DNA from: Candidatus Versatilivorator sp.
Lineage (GTDB): Bacteria; Acidobacteriota; Terriglobia; Versatilivoradales; Versatilivoraceae
Reading direction: 5' to 3'
Assembly: GCA_965207735.1 (NCBI GenBank)
Contig: OZ242296.1
Span: 672,001-736,000 of the forward strand
DNA: 64,000 bases
The position numbers were made by a program, and so were the translations under genes. Positions 5,211 to 62,100 of the stretch are shown here, piece after piece. The notes beneath the pieces were generated by a model that saw only the letters and a program-made list of their open reading frames with translations, had not been told where the DNA came from and made no database searches. Positions within the stretch are counted from its first letter, which is position 1, and each line of letters starts with the position of its first letter.

Positions 5211-6209
5211 CCCGCATTTCTCAGTGCGCCATGGAAAGGCGCCTTCTTCCAACGGGTGCGAAACCCGTCCAACAACTGTCGCTCCGGTTGGTAGCAGCCA
5301 GGGCGGATCATGGAGGTAACGATATGGTCTGAAGCCCTCTGGTGTCAAAGGGCCGCTTAAGGCGGTTCAGCGAGCATGCGGGCCGGAACGCGAGTGAACG
5401 TCGAGCAGGCCTCGAAACGGGCAATGCGGGGGCCGACCCACCTGAGAAATGGGGAAGGCCGAAGACGGAGGGGGAAGCGAGCGACGCGGGCACCCCTTTG
5501 GACCCGCCGGGGTAGTGGCGCTGGCACGCATGGAAGGGGAAGAAGGCAGCAACATGGGAAGCCCTGTGGGTGGTGAGGCACGCACCGAACCGGAAGCTCG
5601 CGAGAGTCAGTCTAGGCCGACAGGGTGGCGGAGAGGCCTGTAGTACCGGAGAAGCCGGGTAATACCGGTGGAGGGAAGGGGCCTCAGGTGAGGAGCGGTG
5701 ACCGAAGGGGGAAGGGTCCCGGGAGTGGCGAAAGCCTGAAACCCCGACCAAAAAAGGGCCGGAGACTCCGGAAGCATCACATGCAAAAGTGAAAGGGTCG
5801 TCGGAGGAGGACGGCGTCGTCAGGGCATCAACAGGCCTGGCGGCAACCCGGGAGCGGAAGTGGATGGAGTGGGGGACGGGTGCCAATCCCATAGGAGTCG
5901 TCCACGGATGCGAGCGGGGACCTGTGTGCGAGACGCATGATCCCACTGGAGAGCCGAGATGCGGGAAAACCGCACGTCCGGTTCGGAGAGCGGGGACTGG
6001 AAACGTGATAAGGGAGCCGGACTGAGGCCCGAAGCGAAAGCGACGGAATAGCCACCGGACCCTATAGTCAACGCGCCAGTCCTCGACTCTACCCAAGGGG
6101 CATGCCCAGAGCTGTCTGTTACCCGCAAGCCCTTACCAGAGAGCCAATCAAAGTACTGAAGATAAACTACTTTTCGTCATGGCACCAGCGACCTGGCGAG
6201 AAATGCGGG
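5211..6209. mobile_element. ~130-bp MITE with IS1380-type ends, left TIR interrupted by a group II intron
   Basis: Left end CCCGCATTTCTCA (5211-5223) plus CC (6093-6094); right end GGCGAGAAATGCGGG (6195-6209); flanks CTAG/CTAA. Ends match the IS1380 at 18340 and the MITE at 50943. Confidence 0.82.
5224..6092 (+). ncRNA. ORF-less group II intron, copy 1 (869 nt)
   Basis: 5' GTGCG, 3' CTCTAC; domain V GAGCCGAGATGCGGGAAAACCGCACGTCCGGTTC at ~5951-5984. Homologous to the RT-bearing intron at 57657-59651. EBS2 ATGCGGG (5424-5430) and EBS1 TGAGAA (5443-5448) pair with the 5' exon. Confidence 0.92.
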
Positions 6210-20024: not shown

Positions 20025-20893
20025 GTAGAGTCGAGGACTGGCGCGTTGACTATAGGGTCCGGTGGCTATTCCGTCGCTTTCGCTTCGGGCCTCAGTCCGG
20101 CTCCCTTATCACGTTTCCAGTCCCCGCTCTCCGAACCGGACGTGCGGTTTTCCCGCATCTCGGCTCTCCAGTGGGATCATGCGTCTCGCACACAGGTCCC
20201 CGCTCGCATCCGTGGACGACTCCTATGGGATTGGCACCCGTCCCCCACTCCATCCACTTCCGCTCCCGGGTTGCCGCCAGGCCTGTTGATGCCCTGACGA
20301 CGCCGTCCTCCTCCGACGACCCTTTCACTTTTGCATGTGATGCTTCCGGAGTCTCCGGCCCTTTTTTGGTCGGGGTTTCAGGCTTTCGCCACTCCCGGGA
20401 CCCTTCCCCCTTCGGTCACCGCTCCTCACCTGAGGCCCCTTCCCTCCACCGGTATTACCCGGCTTCTCCGGTACTACAGGCCTCTCCGCCACCCTGTCGG
20501 CCTAGACTGACTCTCGCGAGCTTCCGGTTCGGTGCGTGCCTCACCACCCACAGGGCTTCCCATGTTGCTGCCTTCTTCCCCTTCCATGCGTGCCAGCGCC
20601 ACTACCCCGGCGGGTCCAAAGGGGTGCCCGCGTCGCTCGCTTCCCCCTCCGTCTTCGGCCTTCCCCATTTCTCAGGTGGGTCGGCCCCCGCATTGCCCGT
20701 TTCGAGGCCTGCTCGACGTTCACTCGCGTTCCGGCCCGCATGCTCGCTGAACCGCCTTAAGCGGCCCTTTGACACCAGAGGGCTTCAGACCATATCGTTA
20801 CCTCCATGATCCGCCCTGGCTGCTACCAACCGGAGCGACAGTTGTTGGACGGGTTTCGCACCCGTTGGAAGAAGGCGCCTTTCCATGGCGCAC
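20025..20893 (-). ncRNA. ORF-less group II intron, copy 2 (869 nt)
   Basis: Reverse complement of 5224-6092 with no differences seen; the shadow ORFs translate identically. Exon junction CCCGCATTTCTCA^CCAG. Confidence 0.92.
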
Positions 20894-49278: not shown

Positions 49279-49362
49279 GCCGCCTACGCGGCTCGACACC
49301 CATAGGCGACGTTTCCCTGGGCTGACGCCCACGGCTAAGTGCTGCCGCGGCTTCGCCGCTCT
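49279..49362. repeat. REP-like palindromic unit
   Basis: GCCGCCTACGCGGC..TGGGCTGACGCCCACGGCTA..GCCGCGGCTTCGCCGCTC; reverse-complement homologue at 62016-62100. Confidence 0.7.
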
Positions 49363-49459
49363 CAAGGAAGCCGGCTAAAGCAGCATATTCTCAGGCAAGT
49401 CCGGCCCCCGCCCTGGTGTGCGGATCATACATAGAGTGAAACAATCGGAAATCGACCAA

Positions 49460-49587
49460 CCCTTCACGACCTTGGTACCCCGTCGCGGTCAACCTCAGCG
49501 CCTTAGTGCCCCTTCGTCGTTCTTCGTGCCCCTTCGTGGATTTCTTTTTTCTTTTGTCTTTTTTCGTTTGTATCAGACAAGTCCGGT
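49460..49587. repeat. Dispersed repeat; uninterrupted allele of the RT-intron target
   Basis: CCCTTCGTCGTTCTTCG^TGCCCCTTCGTGGAT equals the joined flanks of 57657-59651. Related copy at ~61879-61944. Confidence 0.8.
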
Positions 49588-49644
49588 TCCACCCTGCCGA
49601 TGATTCGACGAACACGATCGATTGTTGTCCGTCAGCACGTTCCC

Positions 49645-57317: not shown

Positions 57318-57476
57318 TTGAACATGGATGCACAGGATGCACAGGATTTACAGGACGAGAGCTTCCTGCACCAGAAGCCAACTCGGGCGAAGATCCGGTG
57401 CGGACTTGCGGATTCCCGGCATTAGAAGCCATCCGTTTCCTGAACAATCCTGTGAATCCTGTGCATCGATGTTAAT
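57318..57476. mobile_element. Second element with ACATGGATGCACAGGAT-type inverted ends
   Basis: TTGAACATGGATGCACAGGATGCACAGGAT ... AATCCTGTGAATCCTGTGCATCGATGT; same ends as 48703-48916 but a different interior. Confidence 0.7.
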
Positions 57477-57656
57477 GATCTCTTTAAATCACGATGGGGT
57501 CGGAAGCCCCCCCACTGGCTCCGCCGCGGTCCTTGTTGCTTCTTCGCGGACAAATCCTCTTTGTCCCTTGTGTCCTTCGTTGACCCCCCTTGCCGACCTT
57601 CATCCCATCCCTCTTGGGCCTTCTCCAGCGCCTTGGTGTCCCTTCGTCGTTCTTCG

Positions 57657-59651
57657 GTAGAGTCGAGGGGAGGCGCGCCGGCCTTAGATCGAGGGAGTCG
57701 CTGTTGCCGGCGGCTTTCGCCACTCGCCGGTGCCTCAATCTCGTTCCTCGCTGCGTTTCCTCGCCCCCGCTCGTCAAACCGGACGTGCGGTTTTCCCGCA
57801 TCCGGCTTTCAGTCAAGATCATGCCTTCGCCCTCGGAAGGCTCTGTGGCTTCGACCCCAGGCAAGTGAGTCCATAGGTTTTCCATAGTCTCTCGTCCGAG
57901 AAGCGCACACTCCCCCCGGTCCTCACCTTGTGCTTCCGACAGAGCCACTGACGCAGCCGCCCGCCCGCGTGGCGGTCGATCGCTCGGTAGGCCGGGCTCA
58001 CCTGCCCCAGAACGAAGTAGTTCGCCCACCCGGTCATCGCCCGGTTCAGGTGTTCTACCATCTGTCCTCGAAGCAGCGTCCCGTTCCTCGGCGCCGTCCA
58101 CTCGCTGATCTTGCGGCAGATGCTCTGGACGCTCGCCTGGCTGGGTCGTGTGCCGATGTAGGCTCCTTTCCCTTTGGGGCGATAGTTGCGTCCGATGCGA
58201 TATCCCAGAAACCCCATCGGTTCCTCCGGACACCGCAAGCATCGGGTCTTCCGCTCGTTGACCGGTAGCTTCAGCTCCTCCATGATCCGCTTGACCGCCG
58301 TCAGCATCTCTGCCGCCGGTGCCCTGCCGAGTACACGGAAGTCATCCGCATAGTTGACGATCTCCGCACAGAAGCGCCGGGCATATCCCAGCACCTTCCA
58401 GCCCAAAACGAAGCGCCGCATGTAGAGATTGCTGAGCAACGGTGAGATCGGGGCTCCTTGCGGTGTCCCCTTCCGCTCCCGGCGCCCTCGGTTCCGGCGG
58501 CGTCTGCCACCCTTCCCGTCGTCCTCCTCCACCGGCATCTCCAGCCATGCCTTGATGAGCTTGAGCATCCTCCCGTCACTCACGCGCCGGGCAATGCTTC
58601 GAATCAGCTCCGCATGCGGAATCTCGCCGAAGTAGTTGGACAGGTCGCCGTCAACCACCTCCTGGTAACCCCTTTGCAGGAGTTCATGCACGCGTTTGAC
58701 CGCGTCGTTGGCACTCCGCCCCCGCCGATAGCCATATTGCTCCGGTTGCAGGTCCGCTTCGAAGATCGGCTCCAACACCAGCAAAGCCGCCGTCTGCGCT
58801 ACCCGGTCCCGTATGCAGGGTATGCCCAAAGGCCGGAACTTGCCGGGCTGTTTCTTCGGGATCAGCACCTGCCGCACCGGCTTCGGTACGTAGGTTCCTT
58901 CCCTCAGGTCCCGCGCCAGTTCCCCCAGCCAGCCCTCCACCCCATACGCCTCGATGTCCTTGAAGCCCTCCCCGTCCACCCCGGCCGACCCGCCGTTTCG
59001 GCGTACCTGTGCCCAGGCTTCCTTCAGAAAGTCCTCTCGCCACACCTTGTCCGACAGCGCATGAAACCGCCGCTTGGGGTCCTCCTTCGCTTTCGCATGT
59101 AGCATGGTCTGGAATTTCCGAACCCCCTCTGACCCTGTTAGACTCTTGTCAGTGGCCACGCCTTGCCTCCTTTCCATGCTGCTCTCAACTCAGGGTCCCT
59201 TCCCTCCACCGGCGTTACCCGGCTTCTCCGGTACTACCGACCCATCCGCCACCCTGACGGCCCGGCCTGCCCCTCGCGGGGTCCCGGTTGATGTGTGCCG
59301 CATCTCCCCCAGGGCTTCCCGTGTTGCTGCCTTCTTCCCCTTCCATGCGTGCCAGCGTCACTACCCCGACGGAAGCGGATCGGTGCCCGCGTCGCTCTCT
59401 TCCCCATCCGCCAACGGCCTTCCCCTAAAGACAGGAGGGTCGGCTTCCGTATTGTCCGTTTCGAGGCCTGCTCGACGTTCACTCGCGTTCCGGCCCGCAT
59501 GCTCGCTGAGCCGCCCTTGGCGGCCCTTGACCCCAGAGTGCTTCAGACCATTTCGTTACCTCCATGATCCGCCCTGGCTGCTACCAACCGGAGCGACAGT
59601 TGTTGGGCGGGGTTCGCACCCGCCAGAAGAAGGCGCCTTTCCACGGCGCAC
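57657..59651 (-). mobile_element. Group II intron encoding an RT/maturase (1995 nt)
   Basis: 5' GTGCGCCGTGGAAAGGCGCC, 3' CTCGACTCTAC; domain V AAGCCGGATGCGGGAAAACCGCACGTCCGGTTT. Boundaries are fixed by the empty allele near 49510-49541. Confidence 0.93.
57819..59177 (-). CDS. ltrA: Group II intron reverse transcriptase/maturase, no endonuclease domain
   Basis: RPLGIPCIRDRVAQ, YGYR, DLSNYFG, GTPQGAPISPLLSNLY, YADD, FLGY, GWANYF; 452 aa; no HNH motif. Confidence 0.95.
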   Translation of the reverse strand: MERRQGVATDKSLTGSEGVRKFQTMLHAKAKEDPKRRFHALSDKVWREDFLKEAWAQVRRNGGSAGVDGEGFKDIEAYGVEGWLGELARDLREGTYVPKPVRQVLIPKKQPGKFRPLGIPCIRDRVAQTAALLVLEPIFEADLQPEQYGYRRGRSANDAVKRVHELLQRGYQEVVDGDLSNYFGEIPHAELIRSIARRVSDGRMLKLIKAWLEMPVEEDDGKGGRRRRNRGRRERKGTPQGAPISPLLSNLYMRRFVLGWKVLGYARRFCAEIVNYADDFRVLGRAPAAEMLTAVKRIMEELKLPVNERKTRCLRCPEEPMGFLGYRIGRNYRPKGKGAYIGTRPSQASVQSICRKISEWTAPRNGTLLRGQMVEHLNRAMTGWANYFVLGQVSPAYRAIDRHAGGRLRQWLCRKHKVRTGGSVRFSDERLWKTYGLTCLGSKPQSLPRAKA

Positions 59652-59705
59652 TGCCCCTTCGTGGATAAGTCTTTTTCTCTTGTCTCTTGTCGTTTTTCGG
59701 TTATT

Positions 59706-60701
59706 TCAGGCAAGTCCAGCTCGCCCGGAGGCGGCCCGAAACCAGGCTGTGAAGCGGGCAAGCCCCTCTTCAAAGGCGACCTTGGGAGCATAGCCCAATA
59801 CCCTGGCCGCCTTTCCCAGGTCGGCATGGGTGATGGGCATATCGGCGGCTTGATCTTCTTGCATACGGAGCATGGCCGGCTTGCCGAGGGCCCTCTCCAG
59901 AAGGCGAACCATCCTTTTCAGGGGGATCGGATTGCCGCTGCCGAGATTGAACACTTCAAAGCCAACCTTCAGGGCCAGAGCCGCCGCAATTCCGTCCACG
60001 ATGTCGTCGACATAAGTGTAGTCGCGCAGTGAGTTGCCGTCTCCGAACAGCGTGACGGGGCGGTTTTCGTCGATGGCCCGCGCGAACTTGTGCATGGCCA
60101 GGTCGGGACGCTGCCGGGGACCGTAGACCGAAAAAAAACGGAGGCAGATCACCTCGAGGTCATAGAGGCGAGCGAAGCATTGGCACAGCTTCTCGCCGGC
60201 CAGCTTGGTGACCCCGTATGGCGACAGCGGATCGAGACGGCTCTCCTCTTCCGAAAAAGGCGCTCGGCTGGTCTTGCCGTAGACCGAGCTGGAAGAGCCG
60301 AAGATGAACTGCCGGCACATTCCCCGACGGGCCAGTTCCAGCAGCCCCAGCGTTCCCTGGAGGTTGACCTGTCCGTACAACAGGGGCTGAGTCAAGGAAG
60401 AGCGAACGCCCGTTCGTGCCGCCAGGTGGATGACGGCGTCGTAGGATTTCCCGGACAGCGCCGATTGAAGCTGCTCAGGGTTTGCGATGTCCACCTGGAG
60501 GAAGTCGAATCTTCCCTGCTCCGACACTTGGCTCAAATTCTCCTGCTTGAGATGGGTGGCGTAGGCATCGTTGAGGTTGTCCAGGATGGTGACGTGAGCC
60601 CCGGCGCCCAGCAGGCGTTCCGCCAGGTGGGAGCCGATGAAACCGGCGCCGCCGGTAAGCAGTATGGAGGTTCCCGGAGAGACCCCGGGAGTGGGGTTCA
60701 A
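59706..60701 (-). CDS. NAD-dependent epimerase (UDP-glucuronate 4-epimerase-like)
   Basis: TGGAGFIG, HLAA, SSSSVYG, SPYGVTK, GPRQRPDLA, RDYTYVDD. Start placed at a TTG overlapping the nadA stop. Confidence 0.88.
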   Translation of the reverse strand: MNPTPGVSPGTSILLTGGAGFIGSHLAERLLGAGAHVTILDNLNDAYATHLKQENLSQVSEQGRFDFLQVDIANPEQLQSALSGKSYDAVIHLAARTGVRSSLTQPLLYGQVNLQGTLGLLELARRGMCRQFIFGSSSSVYGKTSRAPFSEEESRLDPLSPYGVTKLAGEKLCQCFARLYDLEVICLRFFSVYGPRQRPDLAMHKFARAIDENRPVTLFGDGNSLRDYTYVDDIVDGIAAALALKVGFEVFNLGSGNPIPLKRMVRLLERALGKPAMLRMQEDQAADMPITHADLGKAARVLGYAPKVAFEEGLARFTAWFRAASGRAGLA

Positions 60702-61744
60702 TGGATCTCCAGCATCCGGTCCACCGCCCGCTTGGCTTTCAGCCGGATTTGCTCCGGGACATCGACCACATATCGGTTTTGGAGGAGTGAGTCGAGGGTG
60801 TCCTGCAGGGTGATCTGGTTCATGTGGGGGCAGCGAACGCTGCACAAGCGGAGCATCTCCTTGTCGGGATTTTCGGCCGCGACGTTGTCTGCCATGCTGC
60901 ATTCGGTCATCAGCAGATAGCGAGGGGAGCGTGCCTGTTCCACAAAGCGAATCATGGCCGAGGTGCTTCCCGAGAAGTCGGATGCCTCAACCACTTCCGG
61001 ACTGCACTCGGGGTGGGCCAGGACCACTACGTCGGGGAACTGCCGGCGCACGTTCTCGATGTCTTCCACGTTGAACTTCTCGTGAACCTCGCATTTGCCG
61101 TGCCAGCCCAGGATCTGGTAGTCCATGTGGGGATCCTGCTTGTCCCCGGGAATGGGTCTGTCGGTGGGAAAAATGATGTGTTTGCCGCTTTCGCGAGCCA
61201 CGTTTCTGGCCAGGTATTCGTCGGGAAGAAAGATGACCGTGTCGGTCTTGAAAGATTCAATCACCGCCAAGGCGTTGCTGGAAGTACAGCAGACGTCGCT
61301 TTCGGCCTTTATGTCGGCATAGGTGTTGACGTAGGTCACCACCGGAACTCCTGGAAAACGCTCGCGCAGTTCGCGCACGTCCTCGGCAGTGATGCTGGCT
61401 GCCAGGGAACAGCCTGCCTCCAAGGAGGGAATCAGCACCGTCTTGTGCGGACTCAGGATCTTGGCTGTTTCCGCCATGAAGCGGACCCCGCAGAAAACGA
61501 TGGGATCGCCGTCGGTGGTGGCGGCCAGCCGGCTCAATTCCAGGGAATCTCCGGTGTAATCGGGCACCGAATGGTACAGTCCGGGCTCCATGTAGTTGTG
61601 TCCCAGGATCACCGCGCCCAGGTCGCCCTTCAATTGATTGATGCGGCACGCCAATTCGGCTTTGGCCCGGATTTCAAAATCGGGCAGGACATCGTACAGC
61701 TTCTTCCGAAGCAGGTGATAAGTTTGCGAGGCGTCTGCGGTCAT
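60698..61744 (-). CDS. nadA: Quinolinate synthase
   Basis: GHNY, GDSL, FCGVRFMAE, AGCSLA, YVNT, CCTSSNA, HPEC, GSTS, CPHM. Confidence 0.96.
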   Translation of the reverse strand: MTADASQTYHLLRKKLYDVLPDFEIRAKAELACRINQLKGDLGAVILGHNYMEPGLYHSVPDYTGDSLELSRLAATTDGDPIVFCGVRFMAETAKILSPHKTVLIPSLEAGCSLAASITAEDVRELRERFPGVPVVTYVNTYADIKAESDVCCTSSNALAVIESFKTDTVIFLPDEYLARNVARESGKHIIFPTDRPIPGDKQDPHMDYQILGWHGKCEVHEKFNVEDIENVRRQFPDVVVLAHPECSPEVVEASDFSGSTSAMIRFVEQARSPRYLLMTECSMADNVAAENPDKEMLRLCSVRCPHMNQITLQDTLDSLLQNRYVVDVPEQIRLKAKRAVDRMLEIH

Positions 61745-62015: not shown

Positions 62016-62100
62016 AGAGCGGCGAAGCCGCGGCAGCAGGTAGCCGTGGGCGTAAGCCCATGGAAAGCGTAGCGCAAGAGTCCGAGCCGCGTAGGCGGCG
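62016..62100. repeat. REP-like palindromic unit, inverse copy of 49279-49362
   Basis: GAGCGGCGAAGCCGCGGCAGCA..TAGCCGTGGGCGTAAGCCCA..GAGCCGCGTAGGCGGC. Confidence 0.7.

Follow-up and report, generated by a model that had tools for sequence, protein, structure and literature searches.

Three group II introns lie in the window, by which we mean the whole stretch of 64,000 nucleotides analysed here. Two of them have no ORF and share one guide, while the third encodes a reverse transcriptase (RT) and is guided differently (Table 1). This raises two questions: how closely related introns came to be aimed at different targets, and whether the RT of the third intron serves its ORF-less sisters.

Anatomy and class of the RT-encoding intron

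The RT-encoding intron has exact boundaries (5' GTGCG, 3' AC), matches the Rfam models D1-D4-4 and DV/DVI, and shows the group II hallmarks 5' GUGYG, 3' AY and the catalytic triad of domain V. Its ORF, located in domain IV, is recognised by TIGR04416 (328.7 bits, cut-off 300), PF00078 and PF08388; the maturase match stops at residue 418 of 452, and the domain search found no HNH match. A GTG codon at 59159, preceded by a better ribosome-binding site, may be the true start. The single-sequence fold of DI-DIII was no better than folds of shuffled sequences (z 0.77), so that the structure rests on Rfam and covariation, and a scan for promoters and terminators yielded results at chance level. The upstream GalE-like host gene is a possible source of read-through transcription into the intron. 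Further short repeats lie on its flank, at 57326 and 57456 beside the intron.

The RT shares 47% identity with that of Ni.ha.I1. In a tree of 18 rows, drawn without g4, basal F and class E, it joins two g3 (class F) references (97/96) and stands clear of g1, g2 and D; its identity to the class D reference is 30%, and it falls outside the class D branch. Features of class F/IIF (sensu Toro 2013: g2-g4 plus basal F) are present as well: the D/En domain is absent, and the folds display a 5-nt domain V loop, described as a IIE/IIF feature, and a long structured domain VI, described as a IIF feature (PMC3753933). That paper also lists alpha-prime, located at the tip of a DId3 stem-loop, among the class features. 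On this sequence evidence we classify the window intron as class-F-like.

Table 1. Coordinates of the RT-encoding intron, its parts, its sisters and its target in the window
Feature	Position	Strand	Remarks
Group II intron, guide type A, RT-encoding, 1995 nt	57657..59651	-	1 of 13 copies, 9 identical
RT-maturase ORF, 452 aa, YADD, no endonuclease domain	57819..59177	-	ATG start at 59177
EBS1 UGUCUU (seventh U at 59427)	59428..59433	-	from covariation; pairs with exon -1 to -6
EBS2 GGAC, intron nt 195-198	59454..59457	-	from covariation; exon -11 to -14 family-wide, A lineage shifted by one (-12 to -16)
EBS3 (G)	59361..59361	-	pairs with 3' exon +1 (C)
ATACGGA, originally predicted as EBS2; strand of an internal domain I helix	59446..59452	-	partner 59369-59374
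Domain II/III joint, conserved, intron nt 398-411	59241..59254	-	crossover interval of the chimeric ORF-less copy C1:1135573
Domain V, AGC triad, 5-nt GAAAA loop	57775..57810	-	
Domain VI, long (116 nt), ends in AC	57657..57772	-	
5' exon, upstream half of ~190-bp dispersed target repeat	59652..59726	-	IBS1 59652-59657, IBS2 (TATCC) 59663-59667
3' exon, downstream half of the same repeat	57587..57656	-	
GalE-like epimerase (below curated cut-off), host gene after nadA	59706..60902	-	same strand, upstream of the intron
ORF-less sister, guide B, 869 nt, in IS terminal inverted repeat	5224..6092	+	
ORF-less sister, guide B, 869 nt, in IS terminal inverted repeat beside IS1380 transposase	20025..20893	-	identical to the copy at 5224
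Empty copy of the A target repeat (internal control)	49396..49590	-	

Three guides and three target repeats in one genome

The 5.26-Mb genome contains 45 copies of this family, which carry three guides, each with its own repeat as target. Guide A (EBS1 UGUCUU) is found in 13 RT-bearing copies, twelve of them with an intact ORF; the identity of nine of these copies implies recent movement. Guide B (EBS1 UGAGAA) is carried by 28 ORF-less copies (22 identical) and by a single RT-bearing copy at C1:5004992, whose intact 452-aa ORF is 83% identical to the A protein and, judging by its dN/dS ratio of 0.21, is under purifying selection. Guide C (EBS1 UGUAAU) is represented by an RT copy (C1:4589468), an ORF-less copy (C1:1135573) and a 117-nt remnant (C1:4261108). 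Apart from the A, B and C introns, no full-length RT of this kind was found in the whole genome.

The target of guide A is a dispersed non-IS repeat of ~190 bp with 334 profile matches at 240 loci, and 11 of 297 repeat sites are occupied. Guide B is aimed at IS terminal inverted repeats (29 of 169 sites occupied, 140 empty) and guide C at a hairpin repeat (3 of 19 sites occupied). The window intron splits one unit of the A repeat cleanly.

Several further observations concern these copies and repeats. In the remnant at C1:4261108 (minus strand), the initial ~84 nt of a C-type intron are joined to an ORF-less-type 3' end, and the IS end at C1:572756 (plus strand) carries no more of an intron than its initial bases; both are probably the result of intron loss via short homologies. 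In the most divergent A copy, C1:4519497 (plus strand), several changes match B or C intron alleles, which hints at gene conversion among the RT copies. Two matches to Acido-Lenti-1 RNA (49315-49360 and 62018-62063) adjoin copies of the A target repeat; they are none of the three targets, and a link to this RNA was dropped. The only fragment of a GxxExxY-type gene that was found, presumably of this type by its motif, lies at C1:2250064 (minus strand), ~200 nt from the A repeat copies at 2250277-2250297.

Guide elements defined by covariation

The covariation analysis started from 259 loci with 241 profile matches, from which 35 partial matches, 12 without a clear 5' end, 11 with less than 20 nt of exon and six duplicates from the genome studied here were dropped. 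Once 44 copies from this genome had been added and identical sites merged, 169 sites remained, in 84 clusters; stricter clustering at 90, 85 and 80% resulted in 37, 21 and 12 clusters, respectively. An unbiased scan of all domain I columns against exon positions produced three signals: intron nt 219-224 with exon -1 to -6 (EBS1), nt 291 with exon +1 (EBS3) and nt 195-198 with exon -11 to -14 (EBS2). For EBS1 and for EBS2 at nt 195-198, no permutation out of 300 was as strong, and none out of 500 at 90, 85 and 80% clustering. The 84 clusters contain 42 different EBS1 strings.

The original prediction had read EBS1 as UGUCUU(U) at 59433-59427, as against UGAGAA(A) in the ORF-less copies, and had paired it with its own 5' exon through three G:U wobbles. 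Both statements are confirmed: all six positions are paired, and they covary with exon -1 to -6. The EBS/IBS covariation that it proposed as a check thus bears out EBS1 but not its EBS2, ATACGGA, for which the real signal lies at nt 195-198. Most of ATACGGA forms one strand of an internal helix (nt 202-207 with 278-283), which is 92-96% paired and has compensatory changes, and after dereplication its pairing with the exon shows no excess (0.36-0.39 observed, 0.38-0.43 in the null).

At the window site, the six EBS1 pairs are accompanied by a G-C pair at EBS3 and by four of five EBS2 pairs in the shifted register, with one mismatch; in the family register the A-type EBS2 makes only one of four pairs. 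All 13 A copies keep five or six of the six EBS1 pairs as well as EBS3, and relatives with the EBS2 GGAU use the same A repeat with a full match. The view that one intron lineage has split into differently guided variants is upheld by the three guides and three repeats of the 45 copies and by the covariation of EBS1, EBS2 and EBS3 with the exons; natural retargeting is shown within the genome and across the 84 clusters.

These guide rules bear on two other readings of the sites. The window copy was originally suspected to be an ectopic, that is retrotransposed, insertion at a poorly matched site, and the three G:U pairs of EBS1, the imperfect EBS2 and the position of two of the 13 A copies outside the repeat would fit this. 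However, the other 11, the window copy among them, sit at one and the same point of the ~240-locus repeat, which argues that the window copy is not ectopic; relatives in other genomes target this repeat with covarying guides, and the supposed ideal site TCCGTAT-(N)-AAGACA has no exact match in the genome, the three relaxed and 11 one-mismatch sites all being unoccupied. We regard an ectopic origin as very improbable. A second role of the ATACGGA segment in guide B introns, where it would displace its internal partner and pair with target positions -8 to -13 in addition to the covarying EBS2, is improbable too, if somewhat less so. All 29 B copies can form the six pairs, one of them with a wobble, and at 98.5% clustering the segment gives a weak signal (2 and 8 of 300 permutations as strong), but the signal is gone under stricter clustering (342-429 of 500) and the strand retains its compensatory pairing with nt 278-283. 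Changes at -7 to -9 are tolerated in B sites, and B introns with other letters in the segment share the same target.

A weak residual Watson-Crick covariation was seen between nt 277 and exon -9 (7, 3 and 21 of 500 permutations); the pair was singled out post hoc, and nt 277 covaries with nt 241 too, so we do not claim it as an additional EBS-IBS pair. In genome G009 (L206 / L262), a B-guide RT intron is interrupted near its 5' end by an element with a target end for a fourth guide (UGUUAA), which seems to be aimed at IS ends as well.

Probable guide capture by mosaic ORF-less introns

The close match between the scaffold of the window intron and the ORF-less introns, as originally described, is found in DI-DIII and DV (75-88%), but not in DIV (~54%) or DVI (63%). 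Of the 13 genomes in the genus, six others contain the ORF-less 3' half at nearly full length. The DV-DVI tree unites all ORF-less copies in a single clade (96/94), apart from all RT introns of the genus, whereas in the domain I tree, with EBS columns removed, they are scattered beside RT introns with the same guide, often from the same genome. When the 13 ORF-less rows of a 30-row alignment were forced together on domain I, the cost was 134.7 log units (p-AU 1.8e-53). The domain I tree requires seven changes of ORF status versus one on the DV-DVI tree; as many domain I branches are weak, seven is a loose upper guide to the number of swaps. Judging from the sequences, the B, C and A-like copies (G004, G005, G008) need at least three joins.

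The crossovers can be mapped. The ORF-less copy C1:1135573 matches the C-type RT intron in DI (98%) and DII (100%) and the ORF-less B introns from DIII through DVI (90-99%), with its crossover between nt 398 and 411; those of other chimeras lie at 395-408, ~385 and ~320. Chimeras occur in four genomes, each at a site fitting the captured guide, and three of them, with 3-6 differences among them, occupy separate guide-matched sites in G004. This suggests that ORF-less introns are likely to retarget by capturing guide modules of RT sisters. Template switching would be a less parsimonious explanation, since the chimera would first sit at a mismatched site.

Since the genomes are metagenome-assembled, near-identical repeats can be mis-joined, and the C-type ORF-less copy is single; still, there is little probability that the mixed copies stem from faulty assembly or from independent losses of the ORF instead of guide capture. 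One shared divergent DIV-DVI is impossible to obtain from separate ORF losses, and mis-assembly, while possible, is an unlikely source of chimeras found in four genomes, of the three differing G004 copies at their guide-matched sites, and of the remnant at a second C site, whose 3' end is of the ORF-less type. In the literature searched, mainly at the level of titles and the beginnings of abstracts, with text passages of some papers, we did not find guide-domain exchange between ORF-less and RT introns, or any such exchange for this host group; recombination in the parts covered of four papers (PMC2882425, PMC2504315, PMC4424553, PMC12584367) is limited to exon-shuffling between two RT introns of Thermosynechococcus elongatus.

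Helpers of the ORF-less introns

As the 28 ORF-less B copies lack any ORF, an RT must act on them in trans. Such action on ORF-less introns is established (PMC4424553, PMC2882425), and protein-free spread is unlikely. The original prediction saw the candidate helper in the window RT or a close paralogue, and named as a refutation an RT copy elsewhere that has the guide specific for terminal inverted repeats and explains the mobility. Such a copy, with an intact RT, exists at C1:5004992 and goes part of the way towards that refutation; the window A RT is consequently only one of three candidate helpers. Between the two main candidates, we lean slightly towards the abundant A RT, with its 12 intact genes, as the main helper of the 28 ORF-less copies; the single B RT is a lesser, though real, possibility. 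Mobilisation in trans by a differently guided RT stays plausible.

The comparison of the RNAs gives a divided picture. The ORF-less B introns are closer to the B RT intron than to the A RT intron in DI (95 vs 88%) and DIII (91 vs 83%). Their DIV is equally far from all three RT introns (54-58%), DVI matches at 63-68%, and DV is no closer to B. In genome G011, which is a single contig and 100% complete, four of nine ORF-less B copies examined are identical, all nine full-length RTs have a guide other than B, and both B-guide RT copies are truncated. This suggests that a differently guided RT can mobilise ORF-less B introns, although recent loss of a B RT could also account for it. In G005, ORF-less B expansions are found alongside full-length B-guide RTs.

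These data also bear on a stricter division of labour, in which the RT at C1:5004992 would be dedicated to helping the ORF-less copies, while the window intron, as an independent sister, would mobilise only itself. The intact, constrained ORF, the shared guide and target and the closeness to the ORF-less RNA in DI and DIII speak for it, as do the high specificity of the RT of TeI4h for its own intron (PMC2882425) and the reading of distal exon bases by the RT (PMC4615759). We nevertheless consider this division doubtful, because the B RT intron has no second copy of itself in spite of 140 empty B sites, is no closer than the A RT intron in DIV or DV, and is not represented by a full-length counterpart in G011, where identical ORF-less B copies exist.

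The bases T-16/A-15 are enriched at occupied sites of both guides (A, 9/9 occupied vs 126/200 empty; B, 27/29 vs 102/140), which is compatible with one protein reading A and B sites; they are missing at the three C sites, 14 of 21 representatives lack them at 85% clustering, and they overlap IBS2 in A. Domain V of the ORF-less B and C copies examined, including both ORF-less introns of the window, has a one-base bulge in the lower stem. The RT-bearing sisters do not have this bulge; the bulged ORF-less copies are nonetheless widely spread.

Strand bias and signs of mobility

Among B sites, 23 of the 29 occupied ones, versus 54 of 140 empty ones, have the orientation expected for the lagging-strand template (p 7e-5; p 3e-5 with local skew), a bias of the same direction as reported for RmInt1 (PMC8914252). 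For guide A, 11 of 13 copies conform by global skew but only seven of 13 by local skew, and this bias was discarded. Contigs mapping to both intron types stem from RNA and DNA of six different runs, mostly of related strains. Intron-skipping joints were rejected as evidence of splicing, since they are also found in a run of unknown kind and equal empty repeat sites; there was no intron circle joint among the joints listed for the contigs of the six runs.

In G011 (C1:155437-159900; L258 / L276-L277), two RT introns form a head-to-tail tandem, the second lying directly 3' of the first, and 5' flanks similar to those of this tandem are present in L140, L169 and L170. G004 has one RT of the family, together with 18 equal-score matches to a group II RT that is unrelated to it (34% identity). 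The cumulative GC skew of the whole contig shows very unequal replichores of ~1.5 and ~3.8 Mb, which suggests inversions or assembly joins at repeats.

Proposed mechanism and implications

Taken together, we are fairly confident in the following reading: the window holds an intact En-minus class-F-like intron matched to its repeat, which likely retrohomes and likely serves ORF-less sisters in trans, and these sisters likely retarget by guide-domain recombination. The cycle would begin with retrohoming into the dispersed repeat matched by EBS1, EBS2 and EBS3, in which an RNP would reverse-splice the intron into the lagging-strand template and a nascent strand would presumably serve as the primer. 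With relaxed specificity, the RT could then serve enzyme-less sisters in trans. Chimeras would arise when copies recombine or undergo gene conversion at the domain II/III joint or ahead of it, and would then home to targets matched by the new guide. With somewhat less assurance, we favour a more general scheme, in which the ORF-less chassis with its divergent DIII-DVI persists throughout the genus by repeated capture of co-resident DI-II guide modules, using RTs whose own introns have a DIV only ~55% alike and a four-base EBS2 that reads -11 to -14 across a long linker.

Sisters with divergent EBS sequences and an RT acting in trans on ORF-less copies are established biology (PMC2882425). What our analysis adds is a second route to new target specificity, namely the capture of a whole guide module by a non-autonomous intron, together with mapped crossovers, pairs of parent and chimera within single genomes, and a covariation-based EBS2 for class-F-like introns. 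For class F, EBS2 is reportedly not needed for splicing in vitro, and its role in homing is left open (PMC3753933). One genome yields a directly testable matrix of three RTs by three guides. If the proposed scheme is true, it would offer a compact, RT-promiscuous targetron scaffold of 0.87 kb and corrected guide rules for class F.

Comparison with known systems

The class F / IIF g3 intron Ni.ha.I1 resembles the window intron in being En-minus, in its length of ~1.9-2.0 kb, in the 5-nt DV loop and in the long DVI; the parts covered of its two descriptions (PMC3552965, PMC3753933) mention neither mobility nor ORF-less partners nor any swapping of guides.

RmInt2 and RmInt1 of Sinorhizobium meliloti (PMC4615759, PMC8914252) share several properties with the introns described here: an En-minus RT, tolerance of an EBS2 mismatch, a longer linker, reading of distal 5' exon bases by the RT, a lagging-strand-template bias and head-to-tail copies. 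RmInt2 homes into IS inverted repeats (PMC4615759), as the guide B sisters do, whereas the window copy is located in a dispersed non-IS repeat. Both introns belong to class D, to which the window RT (30% identity) does not, and the RmInt2 passages covered name no ORF-less partners (PMC4615759).

The closest parallel in organisation is provided by the TeI3/TeI4 introns of T. elongatus (PMC2882425), where one lineage likewise exists in many copies (28 there, 45 here), families are defined by EBS sequences with matching targets (six there, three here), ORF-less introns outnumber ORF-bearing ones, and one family resides in an IS, as guide B does here. Driver RTs of other families were shown by assay to move the ORF-less introns (Mohr, Ghanem and Lambowitz 2010, PMC2882425). 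Given these driver RTs and the IS homing of RmInt2, the interpretation originally offered for the window describes a known kind of system. The differences lie in the class and in the history of the ORF-less introns. The T. elongatus introns are CL/IIB1 with an endonuclease domain (PMC2882425), whereas those studied here are En-minus and class-F-like. Their ORF-less members form one clade that arose by a single ORF deletion within the same lineage, while each EBS family is a clade and retargeting is ascribed to EBS mutation (PMC2882425). Here, in contrast, the ORF-less copies are one clade for DV-DVI only, this being rejected for domain I, and their 3' half, which belongs to a more distant lineage, is fused to the domain I sequences of several RT sisters.
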